From the sequence record DRR378314_1835: a stretch of 20,000 nt of DNA; one strand, 5' to 3'. Positions within the stretch are counted from its first letter, which is position 1; the number at the start of each line of letters is the position of its first letter. Both the position numbers and the translations under genes were made by a program. Under the pieces are notes generated by a model. That model had not been told where the DNA came from. It made no database searches and saw only the letters and a list, made by a program, of their open reading frames with translations. Shown piece after piece: positions 1,378 to 17,323 of the stretch.

Positions 1378-1422
1378 TTTTATTTTGCAAATAATCGCTC
1401 ATTTATGCATAGCAAAATGCAA
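1378..1422. promoter_or_regulatory. Candidate LuxO-type activator boxes (half site plus near-full site, 32 bp apart)
   Basis: TTTTATTTTGCAA (1378-1390) and TAGCAAAATGCAA (1410-1422); same 32-bp centre spacing as the pair upstream of sypA. Confidence 0.5.
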
Positions 1423-1439: not shown

Positions 1440-2933
1440 ATGTTAGTTAGAGAGCAAATAAAACGGTTACTTTATTTAGCTTTGTATGCACTGTATACAC
1501 GGGCTAAGCTTTTTGTGCTGCCATTAGCGATTGTCCCTGTTGTGGTTATATTATTGGCAGTAACGGCACAAAAAAAATACACTAACCACGCGACAATTCT
1601 TATTGAAGAGTCAGCGTTACTTAATCCTTATTTAGATGATCTATCTTTTTCTTTTGACTTAACTAACCGTATGGCAGCTCTAAGAACCTTGGTTATTAGC
1701 CGTAAGGTACTTATCGCTGTTGCACGCGAAACCAATTTAGTGCCTAAAAATGCAAGCCCAGCTGCCATTGAAAAGGTACACCAAGAGTTGTCTCAGTCAC
1801 TTTCACTTTCATTAGTCGGTGATGAACTTGTGCGTGTTAATTTTATTTGGCATGAGCCATCACAAATGAAGCCTGTGTTGGAAAAAATTGTTGAAAAGTT
1901 CATTGAGAGTTTATTGGCCCCAACAAAAGCCTCGTTGGATACCTCAGAGCAGTTTTTTTACCAACAGCTTGTTAGCCTTCGCCAAGAGCTTGAGATATCA
2001 GAAGAGGAATTAGCTGCATTCAAAGCTAAAAATACTAATACGCTGCCCACTGTACTTCATAGTAACAGACAGACATTTGATAAGTTATTGAGTGACTTGC
2101 AGCAAAAGTCAATTGTGCTGTCTGGCGCCAAAGCCAAGTTGGAAGCGTTAACCTCAAAAATGGGTCAAGCAAACCCTATTTTAGGACGCATTGAGGAACG
2201 AATCATTACTGCTGAGTCCGAATTAAGCTTTTTAAAAACGCGTTACACAGACAAGCACAGTAAAGTGATCTCAAAACAACGGGAGCTGATAAACATCAGA
2301 GCTCGTCAGCAAACGTTAATCGAAAACGGCAAGAATCTAGATGCTAAAAATATTGAACAACTATGGCAAATGGCTAATACATTACCCGCTAACACGGATA
2401 ATGAAAGTAATGTGCTTGTGTCACAAATATTGGCGTTGGAAGAAGCTAAAAACCAAGTTTATCAGCATCAACAGGAATTTGAGCTGCTTGAACAACAAGT
2501 CAATGAGCTAAGCCAACGTTTACTTATCACCAGTGATGTTGAAAAACAATTACGAAAATTAGAGCGTGATTACGATGTTAAACAGTCTTTGTACAAAGAC
2601 ATGTTAGGGCGATACGAAATGGCTAAAGTCACAGGTAAGTTAGTCAAATATGAAGGTCCAGATAAAGTTAAAACAATCGAGCGCGCTTACAGCCCAACTC
2701 AACCAATTAACACTTCAATGATGGTCGCTGTGATTGTAGGTATTTTGTTAGGTGTCTTTACAAGTGGAACATGTGTTTTCGTTGCTACGTTATTCGATAG
2801 CCACTTAAAAGATATTCAAACTATTGAGAAGTTAGCAGCCGTTGAGGTGATAACTGTTTTACCCATCGTAAGTAAAGAGGAGATCTATACGAACTCACAC
2901 TCAACGATGAACTTATTAAAAAAGGGGTATTAA
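1440..2933 (+). CDS. sypO: Polysaccharide co-polymerase / chain-length determinant (GumC/Wzc N-terminal type), SypO-like
   Basis: N-terminal TM segment, long coiled-coil periplasmic region (RYTDKHSKV motif), C-terminal TM after AYSPTQP, no kinase domain; RBS GGTAGGGA. Confidence 0.85.
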   Translation: MLVREQIKRLLYLALYALYTRAKLFVLPLAIVPVVVILLAVTAQKKYTNHATILIEESALLNPYLDDLSFSFDLTNRMAALRTLVISRKVLIAVARETNLVPKNASPAAIEKVHQELSQSLSLSLVGDELVRVNFIWHEPSQMKPVLEKIVEKFIESLLAPTKASLDTSEQFFYQQLVSLRQELEISEEELAAFKAKNTNTLPTVLHSNRQTFDKLLSDLQQKSIVLSGAKAKLEALTSKMGQANPILGRIEERIITAESELSFLKTRYTDKHSKVISKQRELINIRARQQTLIENGKNLDAKNIEQLWQMANTLPANTDNESNVLVSQILALEEAKNQVYQHQQEFELLEQQVNELSQRLLITSDVEKQLRKLERDYDVKQSLYKDMLGRYEMAKVTGKLVKYEGPDKVKTIERAYSPTQPINTSMMVAVIVGILLGVFTSGTCVFVATLFDSHLKDIQTIEKLAAVEVITVLPIVSKEEIYTNSHSTMNLLKKGY

Positions 2934-2934: not shown

Positions 2935-4011
2935 ATGAATGTTTTACACTTGGTTCAGCATTTTAAAATTGGCGGCTTAGAAAAAATGGCTGTAACACTA
3001 ATGCAAAAAAGCCAATTTGCTCATAACAGCTTGATTGTTTCCCTTGAAGGTAAAGAACAAGATGCATTAAAAGAGTGGCCTGCGCTTGCACAGTTTGGGC
3101 ATCAAATGGTGAGCTTAAATAAAGCGCCCAAATTTGATTTTTCCTTACTAAAAAAACTAAACCGATTAATCAAAGAGCACAATATAGATGTGATACATAG
3201 CCACCACATAGGGCCTATGCTTTATGCCAGTCTTGTATGTTTGACAAACAAAAATGTGCGCCATGTTTCAACAATCCACGATGCGTGGTATTTAAATAAT
3301 TTTAAGCAACGCTTAATAACGAAAATATTAAATAGCCTTACCAAAATTAATTGGGTTGCCGATGCTCAAGTAGTGGCAAATGATTTTTACCAACATACAT
3401 CTATCAAGGCTGATAAAACTATTCTTAATGGAATTGATTTTCATCAGTTTACCGATATCGATGAGGCCAATGCACGTAATCTGCTCGGGTTACCCTTAGA
3501 TAAAAAACTCATAGGGTGTTCTGCTCGTTTGGAGCCAGGAAAAGGTCATTTGGACTTAATAAAGCTGCTCCCTGAATTAGATAGCGATATTGAGTTAGTG
3601 TTTGCAGGAAATGGCAGCTTAATGTTGTCGCTTCAAAATGCAGCTTCAGTGCTTGGTGTGTTTGAGCGAGTGCATTTTTTAGGAAATGTACAGCATATGC
3701 AGCAGTTTTACTCGGCAATTAATGTGATGTGCCTTTATTCGCAAAGAGAGGGATTACCGCTGTCTATATTGGAGTCCATGGCGTGTGGAAAAGTCATTGT
3801 GGCCAGTGATGTTGGCGGCATTAGTGAGGTTGTTACGCAAGAGCAAGGAGTACTTGTTGGGTTAAATGATCTAGTTGGTTTAAAAGTTGCTCTATTAAAA
3901 GCGTTAAACATGAAGCAAGGGCAATGTATTAGAGAACATATCTTCTCAATTGCCGATGCAGATCAAATGAGCAAAGCATACGATCATTTTTATAATGGTT
4001 TGGCTTTATAG
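2935..4011 (+). CDS. Glycosyltransferase family 4, SypP-like
   Basis: IGGLEKM N-terminal motif, ARLEPGKGH, and the EGLPLSILESMACG (EX7E) motif. Confidence 0.88.
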   Translation: MNVLHLVQHFKIGGLEKMAVTLMQKSQFAHNSLIVSLEGKEQDALKEWPALAQFGHQMVSLNKAPKFDFSLLKKLNRLIKEHNIDVIHSHHIGPMLYASLVCLTNKNVRHVSTIHDAWYLNNFKQRLITKILNSLTKINWVADAQVVANDFYQHTSIKADKTILNGIDFHQFTDIDEANARNLLGLPLDKKLIGCSARLEPGKGHLDLIKLLPELDSDIELVFAGNGSLMLSLQNAASVLGVFERVHFLGNVQHMQQFYSAINVMCLYSQREGLPLSILESMACGKVIVASDVGGISEVVTQEQGVLVGLNDLVGLKVALLKALNMKQGQCIREHIFSIADADQMSKAYDHFYNGLAL

Positions 4012-4021
4012 GGGAAACATT

Positions 4022-5821
4022 ATGTCGGTCTTATTTACTATATGGGTAATTTTAATTGTATTGGTTTTGTACCATCACGTGGGGTATTTAGTTGTTTTAA
4101 AACTCTTTAGTAATGAACAGCGTAAGGAAGATAAGCCCACTGTAACTCCCACCACACGCTTTGGAATTTTAATGTGTGCTTACAATGAGCAAGCTCATAT
4201 TAAAGAGAAGTTATATAACTTAGGGTCGATGCTTTACGATACTCAGTATTATGCAATTCATGTTTACCTTGACGGTTGCACAGATAAAACATATCAAGAA
4301 GCCATGATTGCTCAATCGCATCTTGCAAAGCAAAATGTTAATTGTCATTTGCATTTTAGCAAAGAGAATAAAGGTAAGGCATTTGGCATCAATGAATTGA
4401 TCAAACTCACCAAGCCAACTTACGATGCATTATTATTTACCGATGTGAGCGCCTTATTAAGCATAGATGTATTAAATAAAATCGATACAGATTTTAAAAA
4501 CCCAGAGGTGAATGTAATCACCGGGGTGTATGTGCTTGATGAACTCGCCTCTGCACAGCAAAAGCAGTATTGGCATTATCAGAACAAAGTAAAAAGTATG
4601 GAATCATCGCTTGGGGCTGTTATTGGGATGCCAGGCGCTATGTTTGCTATACGCTCTGAGGCTGCTGAGCTTTTAGAGGGTGGCACCATCAATGATGATT
4701 TTATTCTTTCGATGAAGGCTCTTCAAAAAGGTGGTAAATCGCAGGTTAATAGTGACATCAATATTTTAGAAAGAGAGTGTGACGAACAAAGCCATGATAA
4801 TGCAAGAAGAGTGCGAATTGGTGCTGGAAACTGGCAACAAATAAAAGCATTGTTTGCTTTATTAAACCCCAAGTTGGGTTGGGTAAGTTTTAACTTTTTT
4901 TCACATAAGGTGTTACGTGGACTAATGCCAATTATATTATTGAGTGTTTATGTATCGACGTTTACCCTAGCATTTTTGTCCAGCTCAGTATTACCTTCAT
5001 TATTAAGTATGTTGATACTTGCGGTTCATGGGGTTGGCGTAATTAAACGCCTATTTAATATTAAAGCTAAATTGCCAATTGTAGACAGTGTTAATTACCT
5101 AATTAGTGCTTATGCGCTGGCGCTTTGGGGAATTGTTAAATTTGAGCGCGGAGACTACAAAACTCATTGGCAGCGTGTTCATCATTTAAATAAACAAAAC
5201 AATGCGCCGATCAAAACTATCAAGCGTGGAATTGATATTATCGGCTCCGCAACCGGATTAATTTTGTTATTGCCTGTTATGCTTGGGGTGGCGCTAAGCA
5301 TAAAAATGACCTCTAAAGGACCTGTATTGTTTAAGCAACAAAGAGTGGGTGAGAGTAATGATGACTTTGTTGCCTTGTTTGATGTGCTTAAGTTCCGTTC
5401 TATGGTGGTTGACGCTGAAAGTAAAAGTGGTGCCGTTTGGGCGAGTAAAAATGACCCTAGAATCACGCCTATAGGTCGTTTTATTCGCAAAACTAGGTTA
5501 GATGAGTTACCGCAACTTTGGAATGTACTGATCGGTGATATGTCATTAATAGGCCCTCGTCCAGAGCGACCGGTATTTTATTCAAAGCTGGAAAAAGACA
5601 TTCCTTATTTTTGCCAAAGAACATACGGTATAAAACCAGGTATATCAGGCTTAGCGCAAGTAATGAATGGATATGATGAAAGTATTGATGATGCGCGAAA
5701 TAAAATCGGTTGGGATTATGCTTATATGCTAAGTACGTCATCAGCGCGTAGTTGGTGTTATATGGAGTGCAGTATTTTGTATAAAACCTTTGTTGTTATC
5801 TTTACAGGAAAAGGTCAGTAA
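4022..5821 (+). CDS. Fused GT2 glycosyltransferase (SypQ-like) + polyprenyl-phosphate phosphoglycosyltransferase (SypR/WbaP C-terminal type)
   Basis: N-terminal GT2 motifs CAYNE, DGCTD, FTD, NDDF, RRVRIGAG plus TM helices; C-terminal Bac_transf motifs KRGIDI, KFRSM, DPRIT..GRFIRKTRLDELPQLWNVLIGDMSLIGPRPE. Start moved to ATG 4022 (RBS AGGGGA). Confidence 0.88.
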   Translation: MSVLFTIWVILIVLVLYHHVGYLVVLKLFSNEQRKEDKPTVTPTTRFGILMCAYNEQAHIKEKLYNLGSMLYDTQYYAIHVYLDGCTDKTYQEAMIAQSHLAKQNVNCHLHFSKENKGKAFGINELIKLTKPTYDALLFTDVSALLSIDVLNKIDTDFKNPEVNVITGVYVLDELASAQQKQYWHYQNKVKSMESSLGAVIGMPGAMFAIRSEAAELLEGGTINDDFILSMKALQKGGKSQVNSDINILERECDEQSHDNARRVRIGAGNWQQIKALFALLNPKLGWVSFNFFSHKVLRGLMPIILLSVYVSTFTLAFLSSSVLPSLLSMLILAVHGVGVIKRLFNIKAKLPIVDSVNYLISAYALALWGIVKFERGDYKTHWQRVHHLNKQNNAPIKTIKRGIDIIGSATGLILLLPVMLGVALSIKMTSKGPVLFKQQRVGESNDDFVALFDVLKFRSMVVDAESKSGAVWASKNDPRITPIGRFIRKTRLDELPQLWNVLIGDMSLIGPRPERPVFYSKLEKDIPYFCQRTYGIKPGISGLAQVMNGYDESIDDARNKIGWDYAYMLSTSSARSWCYMECSILYKTFVVIFTGKGQ

Positions 5822-5827
5822 TTTTTT

Positions 5828-5872
5828 TCGCATAATGCAAAAGCACACTTAAAAAGCGATTGCATTATGCGT
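5828..5872. promoter_or_regulatory. Paired bacterial enhancer (LuxO-type binding boxes) upstream of sypA
   Basis: TCGCATAATGCAA (5828-5840) and TTGCATTATGCGT (5860-5872) are near-exact inverted copies of each other (12/13), each a pseudo-palindrome resembling TTGCA-W3-TGCAA; centres 32 bp apart. Confidence 0.75.
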
Positions 5873-5915
5873 ATCAAGCCTGCTTACACCAAGCACTAAA
5901 ATAAAAACTAATAAA

Positions 5916-5985: not shown

Positions 5986-6294
5986 ATGATTAATTTAGCC
6001 AGCGATACAGAGCAAAAAGTTTTAACACTTCCTACAGACTTCTCAGGTTTTGCAGTTGATGAACTAAAAGATAAGTTTGAATATTTTGTAGAACAGGATG
6101 CGAGTTCGGTTATTCTTGATTTCTCAAACACGGAATTTATCGACTCTTCTGGAATTGGTGCTATTGTTTTTCTATACAAAAGAATTGAAAAACAAGGTAA
6201 TTCATTATCTTTACTAAATGTGACGGGTCAGCCGTTTAAGCTAATGAATCTGTTGAGAGTCGATAAAACAATTCCGTTTATAGACTCAATCTAA
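5986..6294 (+). CDS. sypA: STAS-domain anti-sigma factor antagonist, SypA-like
   Basis: 102 aa; LDFSNTEFIDSSGIGAIV with the conserved phosphorylatable Ser; first gene of a sypABCDE-type block. Confidence 0.9.
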   Translation: MINLASDTEQKVLTLPTDFSGFAVDELKDKFEYFVEQDASSVILDFSNTEFIDSSGIGAIVFLYKRIEKQGNSLSLLNVTGQPFKLMNLLRVDKTIPFIDSI

Positions 6295-6313: not shown

Positions 6314-7171
6314 ATGAGATCTTATGTCATCATTGCCATTATTTTGTTTGTAGGTGGGTGTTCTTCTTGGCCGGAGCACGGTAAAGGGGGGCTAGCTGAA
6401 AAATATCAAAACTATCCACAGGAAGATGAACTATATGATTCTAATTATACGCAACCTGAAGATGTGGTAACCAGTGAGTTTGAGCATTTAGTACTTAAAC
6501 TTGAATTACTTAAATCACAAGACATCAAGGCGTGCATGCCTGCGCAGCTACTCAAGGCGCAAATATACGAAAACCGTATTCGTCGATTAATTGCAGCTCA
6601 AATGTGGCAAGATGCTGAGCACGACTTACTACTTCATTATCATGCGCTAAATCAGCTAACTAATCATTTTGATACTGTTCGTAAACTCACCGATTGCGCA
6701 CCAGAAACGGCGACCAAGCCTGCGCTTGTGAATGTTAAAAAACAATTATCAGAATTACTTAATAGTGACAACCAATTTGCATTTAATGCGTTTGAAATAA
6801 CGCCTAAATATGCCGTGAGAGTGGCCCAAGCAGCGGATTTAATTAAACAGTTAGAAAGTATCAACATTTTATTGGTAGGTCATACTGATAAATTAGGTAC
6901 AACGAATAGTAACTATGAGCTTGCTCTCAAACGTGCAGAAACAGTAAAGCAATGGTTGGTAATATATGGGGTGCCTAAAGCGAGTATTACCACACTGACT
7001 CAAGGGAGCTTAAAACCGTATAGTGACAATGCAATTCAAAATGAAAGTGCTCGTCACTCAGACCGCAGAGTTGAAGCAATAATACTCGATGCAAATAACA
7101 CGAATCCACAAGATCAAAAAGAAAAAGCATTGGTTAAATGGACAAAAATTATTGCAAGTAAAAAGGAGTAG
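6314..7171 (+). CDS. sypB: OmpA-family peptidoglycan-binding lipoprotein, SypB-like
   Basis: Lipobox FVGGC; C-terminal OmpA domain (GHTD...NYELALKRAETV...DRRVE); RBS AAGGAG. Confidence 0.85.
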   Translation: MRSYVIIAIILFVGGCSSWPEHGKGGLAEKYQNYPQEDELYDSNYTQPEDVVTSEFEHLVLKLELLKSQDIKACMPAQLLKAQIYENRIRRLIAAQMWQDAEHDLLLHYHALNQLTNHFDTVRKLTDCAPETATKPALVNVKKQLSELLNSDNQFAFNAFEITPKYAVRVAQAADLIKQLESINILLVGHTDKLGTTNSNYELALKRAETVKQWLVIYGVPKASITTLTQGSLKPYSDNAIQNESARHSDRRVEAIILDANNTNPQDQKEKALVKWTKIIASKKE

Positions 7172-7175
7172 TGCC

Positions 7176-9257
7176 ATGAAAACTATTTTTACTATGCTGA
7201 TATTACTATTTTTGGTGACCCCTGGTGCTGCAAGCACAGCTGCTGACGAACTTGAAGTGCAAGTAGGTAACAAACTGTTTTTGTATATACCGGGTGAGGT
7301 TGAATTTGATGGCTTATTTGAGGTAGATAAAAATGGCCAAATCAATATCCCTGAAATTGGAAAATTTAACGTAGCTAATAAAACGAATGCACAAATAGAA
7401 TCTGAATTAAAGCCGCTGTTAACAGAGCTATATGTTGCAATTGATGATTTTTATGTGGAGGTGCGTAGCCGCGATATTTTTATTAACGTGTTAGGTTATG
7501 TCATTAACCCATCTCAAGTTAGTATTCCAGATGACGGCAACATTCAAATGGTTATTGCAAAAGCCGATGGCTTAAAGCCGGGTGCTCAGCTTGATAGGCT
7601 ACAGATAAGACGTGGCGATGAGGTCATTGAATTTAACTACAAGGCCTACCTAGACACAGGCAATATTAGCCTATTACCCCCACTTAAAAGTGAAGATACC
7701 GTGTTTGTGCCTGTCTCTCCTTTGTTAGGTAATGTGCAAATAGATTTTGATGCACAAACGCTCAGTGCCACTGGGGATGCCAGCGACAAAAGCGCCATCA
7801 CTATTTTAGGTGAAGTACACAACCCAGGTAGTTTTTCATTCAAAGAAAAAATGACAATTTTAGATGCGCTAATGCGTGCAGAAGGGGTGACGCGTTACGC
7901 TGACGTGACCAAAATAAGAGTCATTTTAAATGAAACCCCTGTCATATTTGATTTAAAAGCTTATCTTGATAAACCAGTTAATAGTATGCCTGAGCTAGAA
8001 GCAGGGTCGACTATTTACGTCCCCATTATGGTGGATGATGTCAATACTACCTCGCGTACAGTTTATATTATGGGAGAGGTGCAAAAACCTGGTGCCTATG
8101 AAGCGGCAGACAGTACTAATTTTTTAGATATTTTAGCTAATGCTGGCGGGCCTACACGGTTTGCTGAAACACGTTTAATTAAAATATTGACCCCTCAAGG
8201 CGAGAGTATTTTATTTGATTTACAAAGTTACAGTGAAGGCACACAAACAGTTAAGGTGCCTGATCTTAATCCAGGTGATGTCATATTTGTGCCTGAGAAA
8301 ACAGACGTTAATGAAAAAAGCTGGTTAAAAATCCCCACTAAACGAGCAATAAAAATCATTGGTGCTATTCAATCGCCAGGACGTTATGAGTGGAGCAATG
8401 AGATGGACTTTACCGATTTACTTGCGCATGCTGGTGGGCCAACCAAAGGGGCGAACATCAATGATATTAAAATAATTCGAGATGGTGAAGAAACCCAGCG
8501 TTTTGATTTAGAAAAATACACCATTACTGACGGGCAAACTTCTTTACCTGATTTGCATGCAGGCGACACCATTATTGTGGAAGAATTACCCGTTGATCCA
8601 GCTGATAATAAATCGCAATGGATACGCCAAGAGTCGAGTAAGTCAATCTACATTATGGGACAAGTGGGCTCTCCTGGGCGCTATGCGTTTAATGATAATA
8701 TGCACTTCATTGATATTCTGTCAGCTGCTGATGGGCCAAATGCAAATGCAGACATTAGAAATATCCGCGTAACACATCGTAATAGTAATCGTGCACGGGT
8801 AAGCAAGTTAGATTTAGCGCTTTATTTTGAAACAGGTGATGAAACATTATTTCCGCACGTGCAGCCTGGCGATACTATTTTTATCCCAGAAAAAAACAAA
8901 GACTGGTTGCGCACACCTAAAGAACGGGTTGTACGCATTATGGGCGCGGTACAAAAGCCAGGGCGGTATAACTTTGACGATACCATGTCTATTCTTGATG
9001 TATTGGCGGAAGCTGGTGGGCCACTGAATTCAGCGTTAATTGATAAAATTGTTGTCGTTAATCATTCATGTTGTAAAGAGCAGTCGAGGGTTTTTGATTT
9101 AGAGGCGTTTATTAAGTCACCTAATTCAGCAAATATTCCTGTATTGCGTGCCGGCGACACGCTTTATGTGCCAGATAAAGGGCAGGATTTACTCAGTCAA
9201 TTTAAAGACAATTTCCTCGACTTTATTACTATTATTGCGCTAGTGGTGGGCTTATGA
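7176..9257 (+). CDS. sypC: Polysaccharide export (OPX/Wza-like) protein with six SLBB repeats, SypC-like
   Basis: Signal peptide, Poly_export motif (VDKNGQINIPEIG), six I/V-x-(I/V)-x-G-x-V-x-x-P(G) beta-grasp repeats, C-terminal helix. Start moved to ATG 7176 (RBS AAGGAG). Confidence 0.88.
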   Translation: MKTIFTMLILLFLVTPGAASTAADELEVQVGNKLFLYIPGEVEFDGLFEVDKNGQINIPEIGKFNVANKTNAQIESELKPLLTELYVAIDDFYVEVRSRDIFINVLGYVINPSQVSIPDDGNIQMVIAKADGLKPGAQLDRLQIRRGDEVIEFNYKAYLDTGNISLLPPLKSEDTVFVPVSPLLGNVQIDFDAQTLSATGDASDKSAITILGEVHNPGSFSFKEKMTILDALMRAEGVTRYADVTKIRVILNETPVIFDLKAYLDKPVNSMPELEAGSTIYVPIMVDDVNTTSRTVYIMGEVQKPGAYEAADSTNFLDILANAGGPTRFAETRLIKILTPQGESILFDLQSYSEGTQTVKVPDLNPGDVIFVPEKTDVNEKSWLKIPTKRAIKIIGAIQSPGRYEWSNEMDFTDLLAHAGGPTKGANINDIKIIRDGEETQRFDLEKYTITDGQTSLPDLHAGDTIIVEELPVDPADNKSQWIRQESSKSIYIMGQVGSPGRYAFNDNMHFIDILSAADGPNANADIRNIRVTHRNSNRARVSKLDLALYFETGDETLFPHVQPGDTIFIPEKNKDWLRTPKERVVRIMGAVQKPGRYNFDDTMSILDVLAEAGGPLNSALIDKIVVVNHSCCKEQSRVFDLEAFIKSPNSANIPVLRAGDTLYVPDKGQDLLSQFKDNFLDFITIIALVVGL

Positions 9258-9958
9258 AAATTATACCAGAGCAGTACCATGAGTTAGAAACAATCTGTAA
9301 TACTATTAAAGATAGTGATGCGCGGTGTGTCACGTTTATTTCATTACATGGTGCAGAAGGGTCATCTAGTGCCTGTATAAGCGTTGCAAGGCGTTTACAA
9401 AGCCAAAATCAATCAGTGTTAATTATTGACCTTAATCCAATAAGCTCATTTAACATTGATGAGCATTTACCAAGCTTAACGAATGAGTGGCGATTTGATG
9501 ATATTTCATGCCAGCTCAGTGTATTACCTTACAAAGAAGTTAATATACTAACGATAAAAAACTTATCGGCTATTGAATCAGCAAAAAATAAGCATGTTTT
9601 GAATGAGGCAATTATCCGTTTAAAGCAAGAATATGATTATATCTTGTTAGATATGTCACCGGCTTTAAAGCTTAATCGTAACAATGTTCCCTTGCACTCA
9701 CTAAGTTTGTGTAGCGATTTAACGTTGGTTACTGTTGGGTTGGGTATCAACGATGAAGAGTCATTGTGTGAAGGTGTTCGGGAATTAAAACAGGCAGGAC
9801 ATAGCAATATAAAAATGTTAGTTAGCCAACATGATTTTGCCCCCTTAGGTGAAAGAGTCTTGCTCTTTTTAGAGAGTAAAGCTCAGAAGTGGCCGAAAGT
9901 GTGTCGGCTATTAAGTAACAAAATACATAAACAGAAATGGCTGTTTAAGCATTACTGA
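9254..9958 (+). CDS. sypD: Wzc/CpsD-like P-loop domain protein with degenerate Walker A, SypD-like
   Basis: TFISLHGAEGSSS (Walker A-like, no Lys), VLIIDLN, YDYILLDMSP; ATGA overlap with sypC. Confidence 0.75.
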   Translation: MKIIPEQYHELETICNTIKDSDARCVTFISLHGAEGSSSACISVARRLQSQNQSVLIIDLNPISSFNIDEHLPSLTNEWRFDDISCQLSVLPYKEVNILTIKNLSAIESAKNKHVLNEAIIRLKQEYDYILLDMSPALKLNRNNVPLHSLSLCSDLTLVTVGLGINDEESLCEGVRELKQAGHSNIKMLVSQHDFAPLGERVLLFLESKAQKWPKVCRLLSNKIHKQKWLFKHY

Positions 9959-9966: not shown

Positions 9967-11427
9967 ATGGATATTTTATTTGAACGACGTTTTGAATTAC
10001 TTTGGCCAACATTAACTGAAATTCGCCAAGTACTTAAACATGTATTAGGGGCATTGTCTGTTAAGCGTGATGAAGCTGATGCAGCCGGATTGGTTGCAAC
10101 GGAATATTTAACTAATCTTATTCGCCATAATGAGGGAAGTGAGCAGTGGATCACTGTGCGCATAAGTCAAATAAGCAGTGATTCGTATCACTTAACTTTT
10201 ATCGATGAACTAAAACCCTATAACCTATTTGAAAAAAATAACTCCACTTGGAAAATAGACTCTGAAGAGCTGGTGGAGGGAGGAATGGGGGTTGAATTGA
10301 TTCGCCACTATTTCGCTGACGCCTCATATGAAACAATTGAGTTAAAAAACTTTTTTACATTTCCTTTAACTCAGATTGATAAGCGACCTTGCGTTATCTA
10401 TGTTGATGACGATGTAACTCAGCTTGCACTGATGAAAGCCTATTTAAAAGACAAGTTTCAAGTTATTACATGTGAAAATATCGAGGCCGGTTGGCAAGCT
10501 ATTCTAACGTCGGATGCAAGTATTCTGTTATTGGATCATAAGCTCAAAAATGGCACTTGTGAGCCGCTATTGGCGAAGCTAAATCGTTCGAACCTTAAGT
10601 CCCAATTATCTGTTGTTATGCTTACGGGTGATGACAGTGAAGAGGTGATCAGTAAAATTAACCGTTTAGGTGTTGATGATTACTTAATTAAACCCGTAAA
10701 GAAAAACAAACTATTACAAAGTATTGAGCGTGTTACACATCGATTTGCCTACTTGTCATACCAAAGCACGTTTGGTCAGGCTCCAGCAAAGGTCCACCTT
10801 GCAAATAAAAAAACTGCGCATATTTTTGGCTCAATTAGCGTTGGCAATGGCGGCGATTTTTTTATGCCAATCAATGATGAAGGCAGTGCGTTTATACTCG
10901 GTGACATGATGGGGCACGGGTTACAAGCTTTGAAAGAAAGCTTTGCAATTAAAGGTTTTATAAGTGGATTTTTAGCAACAGGACTCGCTTACCAAGATAT
11001 GCTGAGTGCATTAAATGATGCACTTTACAAGCAACAACTATGTAAATCGAGCCTAGTGACCTTGGTTATTTGCTTCTTAAAAGACAACAAACTGTATTGG
11101 TTAAATGCAGGTCATCCAGCTCCAGTGGTAATTTATAAAGATGGCACTGTTTTACAGCTTACAGGTACCGGTCCGTTACTCGGTCTTTCAAAAGAGCATA
11201 CTTATACACTTTATGAAGCTGAGTTAGAAAATGTAGAGCACCTTTTGGTGTATACCGATGGTTGGACCGAGAATCGATGTGCTGATATGAATGAAATTGC
11301 TGAACTAAAAAAAATAATACCCCCTCACCAGGACTCTGCTGAGGAGTTTGCTCATTTATTATGGAAAAATTCACAAGTAATCCTTTCTAAAGAAGTAGAT
11401 GATGCATCGTTGGTGATCATTAATTGA
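9967..11427 (+). CDS. sypE: Tripartite partner-switching regulator: RsbW-type Ser kinase - receiver - PP2C/SpoIIE phosphatase, SypE-like
   Basis: TEYLTNLIRH and EGGMGV (HATPase), YVDDD/LLLD/MLTG/IKP (REC), GGDFF, GDMMGHG, NAGHP, YTDG, DDASL (PP2C). Confidence 0.88.
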   Translation: MDILFERRFELLWPTLTEIRQVLKHVLGALSVKRDEADAAGLVATEYLTNLIRHNEGSEQWITVRISQISSDSYHLTFIDELKPYNLFEKNNSTWKIDSEELVEGGMGVELIRHYFADASYETIELKNFFTFPLTQIDKRPCVIYVDDDVTQLALMKAYLKDKFQVITCENIEAGWQAILTSDASILLLDHKLKNGTCEPLLAKLNRSNLKSQLSVVMLTGDDSEEVISKINRLGVDDYLIKPVKKNKLLQSIERVTHRFAYLSYQSTFGQAPAKVHLANKKTAHIFGSISVGNGGDFFMPINDEGSAFILGDMMGHGLQALKESFAIKGFISGFLATGLAYQDMLSALNDALYKQQLCKSSLVTLVICFLKDNKLYWLNAGHPAPVVIYKDGTVLQLTGTGPLLGLSKEHTYTLYEAELENVEHLLVYTDGWTENRCADMNEIAELKKIIPPHQDSAEEFAHLLWKNSQVILSKEVDDASLVIIN

Positions 11428-11520: not shown

Positions 11521-12927
11521 ATGCCACCAACAATTTTAATTGTAGAAGATACCCAGTCGTTAGCTATGATGTACCAAGCCTATTTACTCCCTACAGGTGT
11601 CAACACCTTGCTTGCTAATGACGGGGCAACTGCTTTAGAAATCATAGATCGCGTCAAGCCTGACTTAATCGTGCTAGATGTTATGCTTCCTGATATGAAT
11701 GGTTTGGATATACTCGCTCAATTAGAACCCGAAAACTCTCCACAAGTGGTTGTTTTAACTGGCCACGCCACTAAAGAAATGGCAATCCAAGCAATAAAAT
11801 TGGGGGCGAGTGACTTTTTAGAAAAGCCTGTTGAAGCAGATCGCTTTAGAATAACAATAAATAATGCTCTCAAAATTAAAGACCTAAAACAAAAAGTTAC
11901 CACATACAAAAACACATATGAAAATGGTCGTTATTTTGATTTGATTGGTAGCTCAAAACAAATGCAGTCTGTTTATCAAATCATCAGCTCTGCATCTGTG
12001 AGTAAAGCGACGGTGTTTATTACTGGCGAAAGCGGCACAGGGAAAGAGTTGTGCGCACGTGCTGTCCATCAAGCATCTAGCAGAGCTAGTAAGCCATTTG
12101 TGGCATTAAATTGTGCCGCAATACCTAAAGATTTGATAGAAAGCGAAATATTTGGTCATCTAAAGGGGGCATTTACAGGAGCTATTGCAAATCGTGCTGG
12201 TGCTGCAGGTCAAGCTGATGGTGGAACACTCTTTTTAGATGAGTTGTGTGAAATGGATATCAATCTGCAAAGCAAGTTGCTGCGTTTTATCCAAACGGGA
12301 ACCTATCAGTTAGTGGGTAGCGAAAAAGAGGTTAAAGTTGACGTGCGTTTTGTGTGTGCGACAAATCGAGATCCTTTAGCTGAAGTTGAGGCGGGACGAT
12401 TTAGGGAAGATTTGTATTATCGATTACATGTGATCCCTATCGAACTTCCTCCTTTACGCGAGCGTGAAGGCGATATTATTGAAATAGCTGAGGCCTTGTT
12501 TGTAAAAATAGCGAAAGAAGAGAGCCACCCATTTAAGTCTATGACAATGGATGTAAAGCACGCTTTTAGCCAATATGATTGGCCGGGTAATGTTAGGCAG
12601 TTAGAGAACGTAATTCGAAATATATTAGTACTCAATCCACAAGAAATAATTGATGTAAATATGCTTCCAGTTCTTCCAAATAGCAACATTAAAACACCGT
12701 TGCCAATTGAGAAAAAAGAACCTGAAAACCGTGTTTCTGTAGAAGATTTAACGGCATTACCTTCAGATGAAGCTGGGGTGAAGGCGCTTTGGCTGGCTGA
12801 GAAAGAATACATAGAAAGAGTAATCGATATTTGTGCCAGTAATATTCCTAAAGCCGCGGCACTATTAGATGTGAGCCCCTCTACTCTTTACAGAAAAATT
12901 AAAGGGTGGGAGGAAAGTGCTACTTAG
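11521..12927 (+). CDS. luxO: Sigma54-dependent response regulator (REC-AAA+-Fis HTH) of the LuxO/SypG family
   Basis: Asp53 receiver; GESGTGKE, GAFTGA, FLDELCEM (LuxO/SypG-type), WPGNVRQL; HTH NIPKAAALLDVSPSTLYRK close to LuxO as I recall it. Occupies the sypG position, so orthology is uncertain. Confidence 0.85.
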   Translation: MPPTILIVEDTQSLAMMYQAYLLPTGVNTLLANDGATALEIIDRVKPDLIVLDVMLPDMNGLDILAQLEPENSPQVVVLTGHATKEMAIQAIKLGASDFLEKPVEADRFRITINNALKIKDLKQKVTTYKNTYENGRYFDLIGSSKQMQSVYQIISSASVSKATVFITGESGTGKELCARAVHQASSRASKPFVALNCAAIPKDLIESEIFGHLKGAFTGAIANRAGAAGQADGGTLFLDELCEMDINLQSKLLRFIQTGTYQLVGSEKEVKVDVRFVCATNRDPLAEVEAGRFREDLYYRLHVIPIELPPLREREGDIIEIAEALFVKIAKEESHPFKSMTMDVKHAFSQYDWPGNVRQLENVIRNILVLNPQEIIDVNMLPVLPNSNIKTPLPIEKKEPENRVSVEDLTALPSDEAGVKALWLAEKEYIERVIDICASNIPKAAALLDVSPSTLYRKIKGWEESAT

Positions 12928-13934
12928 TTAGGCGCATTGTAAGCATCAAGCAATATTGAAAATTGTTGTTTGCCGGAAAACCTTTGCGTAAGGACTGAGT
13001 AAGCATTTTGTATCATTATTTTTTTACTTTCAGGATGCAGCGTTAGCAGTGTTTCAATGCATTGTTGGCATTCTTTTTCATGTCCTTTATTCATTAATAG
13101 TCCGTTAGTTTTATTGATAATACTTGGTATTTCGCCAACGGGGCTGCTAATTACTAGTTTATTCTTGGACATTGCTTCAAGTAGTGTCATTGGCAAGCCT
13201 TCCTCTCGAGAGCAGATGAGTAACACATCTATGTTATGCCAAATTTCATCTCGTTTAGCTAATCCGTAATACTGTAAGTTACTTATTTTTGGAATATCTT
13301 TTTTCATTGGGCCATCACCAAAAAGATGAAAGCTCACATTAGGGTTGTTCTTCATATTGTTTGCTAGTGAAAAGAAAATATCAGGTGCTTTTTCGTAAGA
13401 TAGTCGCCCCACAAACCCGACTCTAATATGACTATGAGTTTCGATAGGGGGAACTTCTTTAGGCATATCTATAAAATTTTCAAGTAATGTTGCATTATGA
13501 ATTGTTTTTTTAATTTTACGTGAAACTGCGAAATTAGTAGAAAGTATTGATAGCCACACGTCTAGCTTGTTATAAAACCACATTTTTCCTTTGCCAGCCT
13601 CGCCAGCATGATAGGTGCTAATACAACGTCGCCCCATTATTTTGCAAGCTATACGGCCTAAAATACCCGCTTTATAGCCATGCGTATGGATGACCGTATG
13701 TTTATCATACTGAGTGAATTGATTTATCAAGCTACTGAGTGTACCTTGAATGAAGGAATACTCTACGCTCTCTTTATCAAGCAGTGTATAAAATTCATGA
13801 TTGTGATGATTTTTATAAAATAATACAGAGCAGCTAACATGATTATTTTTTAGTAGCTTAAATAGTTCTACTATATGGGTTTCAATGCCGCCGATCATGG
13901 ATGAGTCGACAAATAAAACAACCTGACATTTCAT
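12924..13934 (-). CDS. Glycosyltransferase family 4, SypH-like
   Basis: IGGIETH, HTHGYK, FVGRLSYEK, EGLPMTLLEAM motifs; RBS AGGAG on the minus strand. Confidence 0.88.
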   Translation of the reverse strand: MKCQVVLFVDSSMIGGIETHIVELFKLLKNNHVSCSVLFYKNHHNHEFYTLLDKESVEYSFIQGTLSSLINQFTQYDKHTVIHTHGYKAGILGRIACKIMGRRCISTYHAGEAGKGKMWFYNKLDVWLSILSTNFAVSRKIKKTIHNATLLENFIDMPKEVPPIETHSHIRVGFVGRLSYEKAPDIFFSLANNMKNNPNVSFHLFGDGPMKKDIPKISNLQYYGLAKRDEIWHNIDVLLICSREEGLPMTLLEAMSKNKLVISSPVGEIPSIINKTNGLLMNKGHEKECQQCIETLLTLHPESKKIMIQNAYSVLTQRFSGKQQFSILLDAYNAPN

Positions 13935-13955
13935 ACTTAACTCCTAAAGAACAAT

Positions 13956-14288
13956 ATGATTGATAATTCCATAATAGAACAACTTAAATCTGATGTGGGT
14001 GAAATTTTAGCCATCGAACTAATCCACGTTTTTGTTGATGAATCGCAAAAGTTAGTCGCAGAGATGGTTCACTCATCTGATGCTAAAACAATAGAAATAA
14101 ACGCGCACAGTTTAAAGAGTAGTTGCAACAGCTTTGGTGCTACCCAATTAGCGCAAACGTGTTTGCAAATTGAAAAAACTGTTAACCAAGAGGGTGTAAG
14201 CTCCCAGTTACAACAACTTTTAAAAGTAGCGGAGTCCCAAAGCGAGCTCACCTTTAAGCAACTTGCGTTGGTAATCAAAAATCCTTAA
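13956..14288 (+). CDS. luxU: Stand-alone histidine phosphotransfer (Hpt) protein, LuxU-like
   Basis: 110 aa; AHSLKSSCNSFGA motif (His51), matching the H-x-LKSS-xx-x-FGA Hpt signature. Confidence 0.85.
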   Translation: MIDNSIIEQLKSDVGEILAIELIHVFVDESQKLVAEMVHSSDAKTIEINAHSLKSSCNSFGATQLAQTCLQIEKTVNQEGVSSQLQQLLKVAESQSELTFKQLALVIKNP

Positions 14289-15157
14289 ACAAGAGGGCTT
14301 TCATCTATTGAGCTTTTTAAAAAAGTACAAAATATATGATTTAGCTCGCTAATATCGTGCAAGTGGTTTGAGTGATTTTTAAAATGTGAATTACTAGCTA
14401 AAATTTCAGAAATAGCCGAAGGTGAGATACTTAAATCGTATATTTTGCTACCGAGCTGCTCTTGCAGCCAATCAATTCCAGCACTTTGAATATGCTTCAT
14501 AACACTGTTTTCTTCAGCTGTGTTTTCAATAAAGACCCGGCACGCAGATGTTTTTTCAACGGCTCGAAGTATATCGTCGATTAACAACGCGGGCATCACG
14601 CTAGATATAATACTGCCGGGCCCAATAATAACTAAATCAGCATTTAAAATAGCATCGACACACCCAGGCGATGCAGCCACTTTATTAGATAAATAGATTT
14701 TATCGGGAAGAGAATTTAACGCATCAATGGCGCATTCACCAAAAACCTCTTCACCATTGCTTAAAATAGCGACGAGGTCTGTTGGTGATTCAGTCATCGG
14801 TAATACTGTCTCAGAGTTACCTAAAAGCTTATTGAATTTTGCAATTGCTGCTGTTGCAGAATGTGATGCTTGTAGCATGTTTAACAGGACTAAATTGCCT
14901 AAGCAGTGGCCTTTTAAATCACCAGTGGTAAATCTATGCTCATAAATTTTCCTCGTAACGGCTGAGTCATCAGCAAGTTGAACACTGCAGCGCCTTATAT
15001 CTCCAAGTGCAATACAGTTATGTAATTGCCTAATTTTTCCCGTGCTTCCACCATTGTCGGTAGTCGCAACAATAGCTGTTAATTGATTACACACTGGCTT
15101 TATTGCACTTAAAACTTGTGCGAGTCCGTGACCACCACCAATACATACTATATTCAT
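14285..15157 (-). CDS. yvcK: YvcK/GlmR (YbhK, CofD-related) family UDP-sugar-binding protein
   Basis: IGGGHGL, TTDNGGSTG, GDIRR, GHCLGNL, IGPGS motifs; start moved to ATG 15157 (RBS AAGGGG). Confidence 0.9.
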   Translation of the reverse strand: MNIVCIGGGHGLAQVLSAIKPVCNQLTAIVATTDNGGSTGKIRQLHNCIALGDIRRCSVQLADDSAVTRKIYEHRFTTGDLKGHCLGNLVLLNMLQASHSATAAIAKFNKLLGNSETVLPMTESPTDLVAILSNGEEVFGECAIDALNSLPDKIYLSNKVAASPGCVDAILNADLVIIGPGSIISSVMPALLIDDILRAVEKTSACRVFIENTAEENSVMKHIQSAGIDWLQEQLGSKIYDLSISPSAISEILASNSHFKNHSNHLHDISELNHIFCTFLKSSIDESPLV

Positions 15158-15191
15158 GCACTTGCCCCTTCGCTTGCTTATACTGTTAGTA

Positions 15192-15207
15192 AGCAGTAAT
15201 CGTTCCA
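15192..15207 (-). promoter_or_regulatory. Candidate sigma54 promoter for yvcK
   Basis: Minus strand TGGAAC-GATTA-CTGCT, GG-N10-GC, 34 bp before the yvcK start codon. Confidence 0.6.
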
Positions 15208-15221
15208 CCTTAAAACATTTA

Positions 15222-15302
15222 TTAACTCAATGATTTATATTGAATTTTGTTCTATATTTAATTGGGATGGAATCGACGGTTGCAAATATTTGCATAACGC
15301 GA
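15222..15302. promoter_or_regulatory. Candidate IHF site and activator box upstream of the yvcK sigma54 promoter
   Basis: IHF-like AATCATTGAGTTA (minus strand, about 15223-15235); perfect palindrome TGCAAATATTTGCA (15281-15294) overlapping TTGCATAACGCGA (15290-15302), which resembles the sypA boxes. Confidence 0.45.
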
Positions 15303-15325
15303 TGCATTTTAAACGGAGAGCATTC

Positions 15326-17323
15326 ATGCAACACAATGATGTCATTACGGTTAATGAGCTACAACTACATCTTTCTAAGCTATCTCAATGTGAAGATGAG
15401 ATAGGTATATTCACAGCAATGAATAAAATGCTTCAACCTTTAATGAAGTACCAAGACTGCATTCTTTTGAAAAAAGAGAATACTCAATGCACATTATTTG
15501 CAGCAAGCAACCATAATTTTCATATTGATAAATGGCCACATTGTGCACTGTTCTCACAGGCGCTAGAAAGGGGCTTTAGCCTTTGCCAAAATTCAACTGA
15601 GGAGTTGGAGTTTACTTATTTAGATGAGCTAACAAAGCGCAATATGCAGACTTGTTTAATCATAAGTACTGAGCTTGAAATGGGCCGTTTTTTATATATT
15701 TTCACGAACATTAATTTAATAGAACACTCTGGGGTAGTGCAATCTGAAATAATAAAGCTTTATTTACAACAAGTGGTTTTAGCCTTTATAAACTTAAACC
15801 GGGTTGTTGAGCAATCAAGTAAATCGGTTAGATTACTCGATGACCTTACTCAGTTGTCGACCTTGTTTAAAGAGCTTGCAAGCGAATGGTTTTGGCGAAC
15901 AGATTCGGACATGAAATTCGTTAGTGTGAATAATATCGAGAGTGAAAATAAAATATATACCCAGTTATTTTTAAAAAAGAAAATTATGTCCTTACTCACG
16001 CATAATGAAAAACAAAATACACAGAAGTGGCAAGGTTTTTCAAAGCTGATAGAAGAGCGTGAAGATTTTAGTAATTTTGAGTTTGAAGTGAATGCGTCGC
16101 AACGCTTATGGGTGTCATTAAATGGTAAGTCACAGTTTGATGAGTTGGGCCAATTTATAGGGTATTTAGGAATCGCTAAGGATATTACATTTTCTAAACA
16201 GCGAGAGGTCGCTTTAGAAAGTGCTAAATTAAAAGCGGAAGAGGCAAGTAATACTAAATCTAAATTTTTAACTGTTATGTCACACGAAATCCGCACTCCT
16301 ATGAATGCAATTATGGGGGTTATTGAGTTACTTCTTGATACTGAATTAACTCAAGAGCAACGCCAGTGGCTTGATTATGCTAATTCAAGTGCCGATATAC
16401 TTTATGGTTTAATCACTGATGTATTGGATTTTTCAAAAATAGAATCGGGCACAATTTTACTGGTGAATAAACCACTCAATGTAAAGCTATTGATCGAAAA
16501 TATAGTGGGTCAATTACACATAATAGAAGACAGTGACGATATCATTTTTTCAATCAATATTGATGAAAAAGTGCCTACTTTTATAATGGGGGATGAATTT
16601 CGATTAGGGCAAATTCTATTTAATATTATTGGTAACGCGTTTAAATATACGCGTTCTGGCAGTATTTCTTTGCGAGTGAATGTCGAAAATGCCCTGCTTA
16701 ATTTTGAAGTCAAAGATTCTGGAGTAGGGATCGCCAAAAAAGATTTAGCACTAATCTTTCAGCCTTTTAGACAAGTGAATGATGGCATTAATAGAGAAAG
16801 TGAAGGTGTGGGTTTAGGGTTAAGTATTTCTAAGAACTTAATTGAATTAATGGATGGCTCAATAGATGTCCATACTCAACTTGGTTTAGGGAGTACGTTT
16901 AGTATATCAATTCCATTGAATACGGCGCTAGAAAGTGAGGTAGAGAAAGTTTCATTACAAGATCGTTCAACACTCAACATACTTGTTGCTGAAGATAATA
17001 AAACCAATCAATTATTGATTAAAGCATTCCTAGAAAAGTTAAATCATAAAGTAACGGTTGCTAACGATGGTGCAGAAGCGATTGAATTTATGCAGCTCAA
17101 AAGTTTTGATCTAATACTCATGGATATCATGATGCCAACTATGGATGGGTTAACTGCTACACAACATATTCGCAATGAGCTTCTAAGCGATATTCCTATT
17201 TACGCCCTTACCGCCAACGCTGCCACAGACGACAAAGCCTCTTGTTTCAAAGTGGGTATGAATAAAGTGCTTACAAAACCGATTAAGTTTGAGACATTGA
17301 AGGCATCATTAAATGCATTGTAA
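15326..17323 (+). CDS. Soluble hybrid sensor histidine kinase (GAF-like - PAS - HisKA - HATPase - REC)
   Basis: PAS (EWFWRTD...GYLGIAKDIT), H-box SHEIRTPMN, N-box NIIGNAFKYT, DSGVGI, GVGLGLSI, receiver AEDN/MDIMMP/KP; no clear TM segment and no Hpt. Start moved to ATG 15326 (RBS GGAGAG). Confidence 0.9.
   Translation: MQHNDVITVNELQLHLSKLSQCEDEIGIFTAMNKMLQPLMKYQDCILLKKENTQCTLFAASNHNFHIDKWPHCALFSQALERGFSLCQNSTEELEFTYLDELTKRNMQTCLIISTELEMGRFLYIFTNINLIEHSGVVQSEIIKLYLQQVVLAFINLNRVVEQSSKSVRLLDDLTQLSTLFKELASEWFWRTDSDMKFVSVNNIESENKIYTQLFLKKKIMSLLTHNEKQNTQKWQGFSKLIEEREDFSNFEFEVNASQRLWVSLNGKSQFDELGQFIGYLGIAKDITFSKQREVALESAKLKAEEASNTKSKFLTVMSHEIRTPMNAIMGVIELLLDTELTQEQRQWLDYANSSADILYGLITDVLDFSKIESGTILLVNKPLNVKLLIENIVGQLHIIEDSDDIIFSINIDEKVPTFIMGDEFRLGQILFNIIGNAFKYTRSGSISLRVNVENALLNFEVKDSGVGIAKKDLALIFQPFRQVNDGINRESEGVGLGLSISKNLIELMDGSIDVHTQLGLGSTFSISIPLNTALESEVEKVSLQDRSTLNILVAEDNKTNQLLIKAFLEKLNHKVTVANDGAEAIEFMQLKSFDLILMDIMMPTMDGLTATQHIRNELLSDIPIYALTANAATDDKASCFKVGMNKVLTKPIKFETLKASLNAL

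Follow-up and report, generated by a model that had tools for sequence, protein, structure and literature searches.

The DNA stretch DRR378314_1835 (20,000 nucleotides, referred to as the window) comes from Pseudoalteromonas and carries a syp-type exopolysaccharide (EPS) locus, at the end of which lie genes for a sigma-54-dependent activator, a stand-alone histidine phosphotransfer (Hpt) protein and a hybrid kinase that lacks an Hpt domain. An earlier note on this DNA had described that cluster, and the open reading frames (ORFs) and domains agree with it. We propose, at a probability of roughly two thirds, that an activator of the LuxO lineage, a LuxU-like Hpt and a kinase of the NosP-associated type do the job of SypF and SypG in this locus and act directly on the sigma-54 promoters of the syp genes. 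Since conserved LuxO-type sites are found with sigma-54 promoters at the syp operons, the locus is best read as one in which a LuxO-lineage relay controls EPS genes directly.

Textbooks place LuxO at the hub of Vibrio quorum sensing, where it is regarded as an activator of small RNAs (sRNAs), and SypG is the textbook switch of the symbiosis biofilm. In Vibrio fischeri, the hybrid kinase SypF, which has an Hpt domain, feeds both SypG and SypE; SypE and SypA form a partner switch, and there are four sigma-54 syp promoters. In Pseudomonas aeruginosa, the NosP-associated hybrid kinase NahK feeds the Hpt protein HptB.

The window was compared with a set of loci (L-numbers) and genomes (G-numbers). 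The nearest genome, G001 (4.5 Mb), has 85% of the window's words in common and an activator 99% identical to that of the window, whose best database matches are Pseudoalteromonas records at 62-78% identity. According to passages of PMC10162802, the published LuxO enhancer is TTGCAWWWTGCAA. Two such sites precede sypA in the window and are followed by a predicted sigma-54 promoter (Table 1). The same layout was found in all nine Pseudoalteromonas loci, with the two sites 31-32 bp apart and a TGGCAY-N5-TTGnn element 55-65 nt further on. Many of these sites are perfect while their flanks diverge, and after addition of two species a site with at most one mismatch was present in 12 of 13 distinct Pseudoalteromonas sequences upstream of sypA. 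G001, which has rpoN, contains 61 sites with at most one mismatch versus 38 in the control, seven of them in this 25-kb locus; the exact paired pattern occurs once in that genome, at sypA, and not at all in the control. No Qrr gene (RF00378) was detected in the window at E ≤ 1.

Sets of sites and promoters also precede the sypI-like gene and a DUF4842 gene in G001. The latter (contig C15, 96974-99292) begins some 9.5 kb upstream of the window and codes for a 730-residue DUF6923/GEVED/DUF4842 protein, possibly a matrix component under common control with the polysaccharide; two LuxO-type sites with a spacing of 22 bp and a GG-N10-GC promoter lie before this gene. Further sites lie just before two start codons of the window. 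Those before the sypO-like gene are 17-50 nt from its start, and a site 30-42 nt before this start is kept in L188, L190 and L015. A candidate -24/-12 element lies upstream of them (1326-1341), which puts the sites between that element and the start codon, an unusual placement for an enhancer. The single site before the kinase gene is found at the same place in L012, L015 (where it is perfect), L018 and L190. The position of the sypO and kinase sites suggests feedback or repression, which is a guess. Only conserved and positioned sigma-54 elements were used for these assignments: a window-wide scan with the sigma-54 consensus gave 21 matches versus 13.1 expected, a number reached by 3 of 200 shuffles, and is not an enrichment by itself. 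Two other G001 sites were treated as chance occurrences, namely a second perfect TTGCAWWWTGCAA at C1:184417, which falls within a long ORF, and the one next to it at C1:187497, between unrelated genes.

The activator has a receiver (REC) domain with Asp53 as phospho-acceptor, a sigma-54 AAA+ domain with GAFTGA at position 216, and a Fis-type helix-turn-helix (HTH) with GNIPKAA...SPSTLYRK, which is the composition of LuxO. The LuxO-like motifs quoted in the earlier note are all there, but they are common to the whole LuxO/SypG family and thus do not discriminate LuxO from SypG. Over its length the protein is 54.5% identical to Aliivibrio fischeri LuxO versus 44.9% to A. fischeri SypG. The first HTH helix reads GNIPKAA in Pseudoalteromonas, LuxO and most other members and GNVLNAA in Vibrio SypG. 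After the recognition helix, syp-linked groups have YRKKQ; Pseudoalteromonas, LuxO and Aeromonadaceae-type relatives have a hydrophobic residue instead (YRK[I/M]K). This small HTH signature agrees with a placement next to LuxO.

For phylogeny, the family members came from three sources, namely 80 named loci, 151 genomes sampled evenly across the order, and second copies in vibrios, and were labelled by their neighbour genes. A quick search under a site-heterogeneous model gave a tree of 92 rows, in which the six Pseudoalteromonas rows (support 100) were sister to the 11 Vibrionaceae LuxO rows (99), with a Shimodaira-Hasegawa-like approximate likelihood ratio (SH-aLRT) of 89, and Vibrionaceae SypG (100) grouped with syp-linked regulators of other families (92). 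A 52-row tree gave the same topology, with 83 (SH-aLRT) for the join of Pseudoalteromonas and LuxO. In an LG+F+G4 tree, that join received 77.5 by SH-aLRT and 93 by ultrafast bootstrap, and the grouping of SypG with syp-linked regulators of two other families received 94.2 and 96. The phylogeny of the AAA+ regulators, proposed as a check in the earlier note, thus leaves the activator outside SypG in all three trees. The activator most likely comes from the LuxO side of the LuxO/SypG family. It is also the sole gene of that family in G001, with 633 bits for the LuxO model and 373 for the next bacterial enhancer-binding protein; the separate canonical luxOU locus that the earlier note had regarded as telling against its proposal is therefore not found in that genome. 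Elsewhere in the genus, a 47% relative of the activator is found in 7 of 61 genomes, as a kinase-Hpt-activator module without syp. Of three loci with this relative (L185-L187; G162, G160, G187), neighbours were detected in two; in both it stands beside a LuxU-like Hpt, in one of them also with a kinase, and without syp or yvcK.

We next consider the neighbours of the activator. Only 93 bases separate the end of sypE (11427) from the activator start, so there is no sypF at this place, as previously stated. The order sypE-activator-sypH, also noted earlier, was confirmed, except that the sypH-like glycosyltransferase (GT) gene is on the minus strand, convergent with the activator. This GT4 is 37-41% identical to the product of the gene after sypG in A. 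fischeri and occupies the same place in other Pseudoalteromonas loci, although it is fragmented in sp. H71. Beyond it lies the Hpt gene. The product has the features of LuxU, i.e., it is a stand-alone protein of about 110 residues with an HxxK(S/G) histidine, H51 in AHSLKSS. Its best NCBIfam match is LuxU (NF041948), at 35.9 bits, far below the cut-off of 140, and it is 27-32% identical to LuxU of A. fischeri and P. angustum. The 3′ ends of the Hpt and yvcK genes overlap by 4 nt, and LuxU and yvcK of A. fischeri and P. angustum likewise overlap tail to tail.

The luxO-luxU order followed by a convergent yvcK, which the earlier note gave for Vibrio, is real: a convergent yvcK comes after the activator in 33 of 33 Vibrionaceae loci, and in A. 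fischeri and P. angustum, where this was inspected, LuxU lies between the two. Six of the nine Pseudoalteromonas loci have the order activator, inverted GT, Hpt, convergent yvcK and kinase. This corresponds to the LuxO arrangement, with luxU downstream and yvcK convergent, into which a GT4 gene is inserted between activator and Hpt. No yvcK was found beside the activator in the 38 other loci compared with these or in a further set of 40 loci, and among the loci examined only Vibrionaceae and Pseudoalteromonas have activator, Hpt and convergent yvcK together. G001 has 14 Hpt matches, two of them stand-alone and one of those two the window-type Hpt; its single yvcK copy is that of the locus.

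Gene content across 61 Pseudoalteromonas genomes shows the same association. The activator (at least 64% identity) is present in 21 of them, and yvcK (at least 45% identity) and the kinase sensor region in the same 20, all activator-positive; both are missing from the 40 activator-less genomes. In 17 of the 20 co-occurring genomes, the relay genes lie within 5 kb. One of nine genomes of the family sample has the activator gene, which is an accessory block in the genus. The arrangement is more than chance, because it repeats in several Pseudoalteromonas species, with activators 63-96% identical, and because the genes co-occur. One or two in-frame stops interrupt yvcK in 4 of the 20 relay-linked copies (G158, G175, G200 and G171), which suggests repeated decay of this gene while the kinase stays open.

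The third component is a hybrid kinase with H352 in the HisKA domain and D632 in the REC domain (longest-ORF numbering). The REC domain ends three residues before the stop codon, and thus the protein has no Hpt domain. Its start is most likely the ATG at 15326 (M33) rather than 15230, because orthologues align from M33, GGAG is found 8 nt upstream, and the conserved LuxO-type site then falls in the intergenic stretch that is freed. The sensor region (residues 33-330) gave no Pfam domain at E ≤ 0.01; its Pseudaeromonas homologue has weak matches to GAF (0.0019) and PAS_4 (0.00035). The window sensor region has homologues in kinases whose genes directly follow FIST N+C (NosP-type) genes in A. 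fischeri, Pseudaeromonas and L161. The best full-length match in A. fischeri (34% over residues 15-658) is such a FIST-adjacent gene, and SypF matches in the catalytic core only. In Pseudaeromonas (L064) and L161, the genes are in the order ACT-Hpt-FIST-kinase on one strand and the kinase has the same sensor region as that of the window. The window kinase therefore resembles NosP-associated kinases in being a cytoplasmic HisKA-HATPase-REC protein without Hpt, with a sensor region matching FIST-adjacent kinases and with such operons in relatives. Unlike them, it has no FIST partner in G001, where a search with PF08495 gave no match (one match in the control genome G003), and it scores 176 bits with the NahK-type model NF041832, below the cut-off of 400. 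A kinase that feeds a LuxU-like Hpt and a LuxO-like activator has a precedent in Vibrio cholerae, where, according to parts of PMC6769237, phosphate is exchanged between LuxU and the NosP-associated kinase VpsS, which acts via LuxO on vps genes. In two syp loci of another genus (L159 and L160, genus code g31), sypA-D are followed by a hybrid kinase, a stand-alone Hpt, sypE and the activator. The split of kinase and Hpt inside a syp locus is thus not unique to Pseudoalteromonas, since these loci have it with an activator on the SypG side of the tree.

Several observations weigh against a LuxO-lineage relay that acts directly on syp. A first group concerns the origin and setting of the activator. 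With the NCBIfam LuxO model (NF041946, an equivalog with a curated cut-off of 800 bits), the window activator scores 631 bits, below the cut-off and near the 603 bits of A. fischeri SypG; the controls, LuxO of A. fischeri and V. cholerae, score 826 and 853. The support for its placement as sister of LuxO is moderate, and deep nodes of the trees are weak. Constraining the Pseudoalteromonas rows into the syp-linked group cost 28.4 log-likelihood units, and in the approximately unbiased (AU) test this placement was disfavoured but not rejected (p-AU 0.065). The relay outlives syp in Pseudoalteromonas sp. H71, and thus other targets may exist. In that genome (L011, 10001-15817), activator, Hpt and kinase are intact and the sypH-like GT and yvcK are in short ORFs; there are no syp genes within 10 kb upstream of the relay, where nitrite reductase genes are found instead. 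Among 29 yvcK loci of other genera, three have convergent Hpt and yvcK genes but no activator, and therefore this pairing is older than the triple of activator, Hpt and yvcK. In these three loci (L220 in G145, L224 in G034 and L226 in G005), which belong to other families, no activator is nearby, and in two of the genomes, of one genus, a SypE-like REC-PP2C gene directly precedes the Hpt. The window yvcK is 38-40% identical to Vibrionaceae copies and up to 45% to those of other families, which makes it uninformative as an independent marker of Vibrio affinity. Lastly, the absence of Qrr genes from G001 (none, versus one in A. fischeri and four in V. cholerae) rests on 150 scored candidates out of 586.

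Some of these observations would suit an activator that is the SypG/ScvE orthologue of a syp locus, inherited vertically or horizontally, that has lost sypF, with Hpt, yvcK and kinase as unrelated neighbours and the likeness to LuxO a result of slow divergence. The gene is indeed coded inside a syp locus, in the sypG slot between sypE and the sypH-like gene, though without sypF and with sypH inverted. A survey by Liu et al. 2022 (PMC8941931) describes syp/scv loci with a ScvE-type regulator in four Pseudoalteromonas species, and its Table S4 scores ScvE as present in them. The survival of the syp-linked placement in the AU test and the LuxO-model score close to that of SypG are in line with this account, as are the P. 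phenolica-type genomes, where the activator stays with syp and yvcK and kinase are about 35 kb away on the same contig. We nevertheless consider it unlikely, as all three trees group the activator with LuxO, its HTH carries the LuxO-type signature, yvcK and kinase are found strictly together with it (20 of 21 genomes with it versus 0 of 40 without), it stays with Hpt and kinase in sp. H71 although syp is gone, and G001 has no other LuxO-like gene. The proposal that a LuxOU relay serves directly as a biofilm-polysaccharide switch is supported in part, by the LuxO-side trees, the lack of a second luxOU locus in G001, the absence of Qrr matches from the window and from the candidates scored in G001, and the enhancer and promoter sites, with the reservation that the AU test does not reject a SypG-side origin. 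In the P. phenolica-type loci (L016 and L017, from P. phenolica and sp. SS15; 11579-12739) and in G163 and G180, the activator is followed by a gene for a GGDEF diguanylate cyclase rather than by GT, Hpt, yvcK and kinase.

A second group of such observations concerns the sites themselves. The -12 element of the predicted sypA promoter reads TTGA, not TTGC. Non-Vibrio syp loci with SypG-side regulators (L076, L178, L179, L180 and L182) also have TTGCA-type sites before sypA, and the site type thus argues for direct control by this family rather than for descent from LuxO. For SypG, passages of PMC10162802 quote the enhancer TTCTCANNNTGMDWN from Ray et al. 2013, and the first sypA site of the window, TTCGCATAATGCAAA, fits it with one mismatch. 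All seven Vibrionaceae SypG loci (Vibrio and A. fischeri) have TTCTCA-type sites, in the form TTCTCA-N3-TGAGAA in Vibrio loci, and none of the seven has the LuxO type. This form goes together with GNVLNAA in the Vibrionaceae SypG loci L103, L105 and L144-L148, and all other groups combine TTGCA-type sites with GNIPKAA; it looks like protein and site co-changed where LuxO and SypG coexist. One of these loci, L105 (from a record titled Vibrio cholerae strain BI-5D), has a syp-like locus whose SypG-type activator is 46% identical to the window protein, plus luxO and four Qrr genes.

The two sypA sites are moreover complementary to each other, with a potential 12-bp hairpin of -20 kcal/mol (z -3.7), and their centres co-vary in five lineages, so a role as RNA or DNA structure is possible. 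The TTGCA-type palindromes might then form hairpins between cistrons or be bound by another factor, and the relay would control targets elsewhere. The odd placement of sites just before the start codons of sypO and the kinase and the retention of the relay without syp in sp. H71 could be understood in the same way. We regard this as highly improbable: five intergenic stretches of the locus contain the same 13-mer, alone or in pairs that are not complementary, this 13-mer agrees with the published LuxO enhancer, and a conserved GG-N10-G(C/A) element follows the sites at a fixed distance. In addition, the sites of L016 and L017 are not complementary at their centres, and G001 has no other family member to bind the sites. 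In an Rfam search of the window (E ≤ 1), a weak PK-repBA match at 5754-5874 (26.7 bits versus a gathering score of 45) was discarded, being explained by the inverted enhancer pair.

The earlier note had further suggested that the locus resembles the ancestral module from which LuxO and SypG diverged. It would then be an undivided EPS relay, whose duplication in Vibrionaceae later gave rise both to LuxO, which was retargeted to Qrr genes, and to SypG. A single family member with no Qrr found, the combination of LuxO-type synteny with a SypG-type position, and the generality of TTGCA-type sites in the family outside Vibrio SypG are what one would expect of such a relay. The trees do not bear this suggestion out, and we rate it as quite improbable. 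Vibrionaceae SypG does not branch with Vibrionaceae LuxO but with syp-linked regulators of at least four other families, and therefore the duplication predates Vibrionaceae. The nearest outgroups of LuxO plus Pseudoalteromonas are linked to Hpt and NosP-type kinases without syp, and the gene is accessory both in the genus and in the family sample. The split between LuxO and SypG thus looks older, and the link to syp in Pseudoalteromonas looks secondary, because SypG groups with syp-linked regulators and Pseudoalteromonas with LuxO and then with these syp-less regulators. The account that would fit best is that a resident LuxO-type relay secondarily captured a syp island, helped by the TTGCA enhancer that the two had in common.

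A wider scenario, which we put forward tentatively and consider less likely than not, is that Pseudoalteromonas shows LuxU-LuxO as it was before quorum sensing, i.e., a relay with a cytoplasmic NosP-kinase-type input and LuxO acting on TTGCAWWWTGCAA sites before surface-polysaccharide operons. Vibrionaceae would later have aimed the same activator and enhancer at Qrr genes and then moved SypG to TTCTCA...TGAGAA, with the change from IPKAA to VLNAA, insulating the paralogues. In Pseudoalteromonas, the shared site would have let the resident LuxO capture the incoming syp island, making sypF and sypG dispensable.

The proposed mechanism is as follows; beyond gene content and cis-elements, its steps are inferred. 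The cytoplasmic hybrid kinase would autophosphorylate and pass phosphate from H352 to D632, then to H51 of the Hpt and on to D53 of the activator; the conserved neighbourhood and co-occurrence of the genes point to this role of the Hpt between kinase and activator. The Hpt would probably also phosphorylate the REC domain of SypE. The phosphorylated activator would bind the paired sites and, with sigma-54 RNA polymerase, turn on the sypA-E operon, the sypI-like operon and the neighbouring secreted-protein gene, and the sites before sypO and the kinase gene might provide feedback or fine control. A post-transcriptional partner switch of the V. fischeri type probably exists here by analogy, because SypE and SypA are both present, and it is perhaps fed by the same Hpt; in another family, there are loci with kinase, Hpt, sypE and activator in this order. 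In this locus, the LuxO-lineage activator probably replaced sypF and sypG.

The relay shares with LuxU-LuxO of Vibrio a REC-AAA+-HTH activator with its Asp in a VLD motif, a stand-alone Hpt tail to tail with yvcK, Hpt-less hybrid kinases as inputs, and the same enhancer motif with predicted sigma-54 promoters; in the three trees its activator is sister to LuxO with moderate support. It differs in that its predicted targets are polysaccharide operons, with no Qrr found in the window or in the partial scan of G001, that a glycosyltransferase gene separates luxO from luxU within an EPS island between gmk and yicC, that its proteins fall under the NCBIfam LuxO and LuxU cut-offs, and that the gene is accessory (21/61 genomes). 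With Syp of V. fischeri, it has in common the structural genes, the order of sypA-E, an activator in the sypG slot, SypE and SypA, and predicted sigma-54 promoters with paired enhancers before sypA and the sypI-like gene. Unlike in V. fischeri, sypF is missing, the kinase and the Hpt belong to another lineage and have a gene each, TTGCA...TGCAA stands in place of TTCTCA...TGAGAA as the enhancer and IPKAA in place of VLNAA in the HTH, the activator is outside the SypG clade in the trees, and the gene order is permuted (sypI-R before sypA-E) with sypH inverted.

These features would provide a natural system in which one LuxO-lineage protein with LuxU appears to run syp genes directly, with no Qrr found. 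It could serve as a simple test bed for the enhancer specificity that separates paralogous enhancer-binding proteins, for regulator swapping when polysaccharide islands move, and for the input to which a LuxOU relay responded before it was joined to autoinducer receptors. The reading also yields a prediction of how biofilm formation is regulated in a genus that matters for the colonisation of marine surfaces, and should be of interest to researchers in Vibrio quorum sensing and biofilm regulation. According to passages of PMC10162802, qrr1 of V. fischeri is activated by SypG as well as by LuxO, and SypG is also found in 12 of 21 LuxO-bearing Vibrionaceae taxa. Expression of a 'luxO' gene has been measured in Pseudoalteromonas under the assumption of a Vibrio-like role, as stated in parts of PMC6275029. 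In the full-text literature, which leaves subscription journals aside, we found no paper that ties the Pseudoalteromonas gene to syp, LuxU/yvcK, the LuxO clade or the enhancer sites. The main text of PMC8941931 has no occurrence of LuxO, and the Hpt, yvcK and kinase neighbours and the enhancer sites are absent from the parts of it that were covered; the passages obtained from a paper on wrinkled variants of P. lipolytica (PMC8919034) are not about this locus.

Three sequencing runs guessed to be RNA were set aside, as with their even depth and a divergence of about 7% they resemble DNA from a related strain. A metatranscriptome yielded eight short pieces at low depth, spread over the window, which support no conclusion on expression.

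The genes of the window were assigned from ORF calls and Pfam/NCBIfam profile scans, with syp identities from tblastn against the A. fischeri syp locus (Table 1).

Table 1. Genes and predicted cis-elements of the syp-type locus and its relay in the window
Feature	Position	Strand	Basis or remarks
sypN-like glycosyltransferase	173-1303	+	Pfam/NCBIfam; tblastn to A. fischeri syp locus (range for the sypN-R set, 31-39%)
Two LuxO-type sites before sypO-like gene	1378-1390, 1410-1422		2 mismatches and 1 mismatch, respectively; 32 bp apart
sypO-like chain-length determinant	1440-2933	+	Pfam/NCBIfam; tblastn to A. fischeri syp (set 31-39%)
sypP-like GT4	2935-4011	+	Pfam/NCBIfam; tblastn to A. fischeri syp (set 31-39%)
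Fused sypQ+sypR, GT2/sugar transferase	3995-5821	+	Pfam/NCBIfam; tblastn to A. fischeri syp (set 31-39%)
Paired LuxO-type sites before sypA	TCGCATAATGCAA 5828-5840, TTGCATTATGCGT 5860-5872		32 bp centre to centre
Predicted sigma-54 (-24/-12) promoter of sypA operon	TGGCATTCTTCTTGAA 5933-5948	+	38 nt before sypA ATG
sypA (STAS)	5986-6294	+	Pfam
sypB (OmpA)	6314-7171	+	Pfam
sypC (export)	7089-9257	+	Pfam
sypD (ATPase)	9254-9958	+	Pfam
sypE (HATPase_c_2-REC-PP2C)	9967-11427	+	Pfam
LuxO-lineage sigma-54 activator (most likely)	11521-12927	+	Response_reg + Sigma54_activat + AAA_lid_14 + HTH_8
sypH-like GT4, inverted, between activator and Hpt	12924-13934	-	Pfam; convergent with activator
Stand-alone LuxU-like Hpt, 110 aa, H51	13956-14288	+	Pfam Hpt, 43 bits
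yvcK/ybhK (CofD-related), convergent with Hpt	14285-15208	-	TIGR01826, 245 bits (cut-off 196)
Single LuxO-type site before kinase	15290-15302		TTGCATAACGCGA, 2 mismatches, 24 nt before 15326
Cytoplasmic hybrid kinase without Hpt	15326-17323 (longest ORF from 15230)	+	HisKA + HATPase_c + REC

The kinase gene is followed in the window by yicC, rph and pyrE. In G001, the locus continues upstream with an inverted GT2 gene, the sypI-like GT4 gene and genes for a flippase, a Wzy-type polymerase and a hexapeptide transferase, and further upstream with those for the large secreted DUF6923-GEVED-DUF4842 protein, a 164-residue ORF and an EEP-family protein; gmk and yicC flank the whole block. Window and G001 together thus have sypA-E and sypH-R type transferases, flippase and polymerase in one cluster, as is characteristic of a syp/scv locus, and sypA-E are in the same order as in A. 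fischeri. The fusion of sypQ and sypR in Pseudoalteromonas is already on record in section 10 of PMC8941931. The longest sypC ORF runs 83 nt into the end of sypB (7089-7171), and the real start of sypC is probably further downstream.

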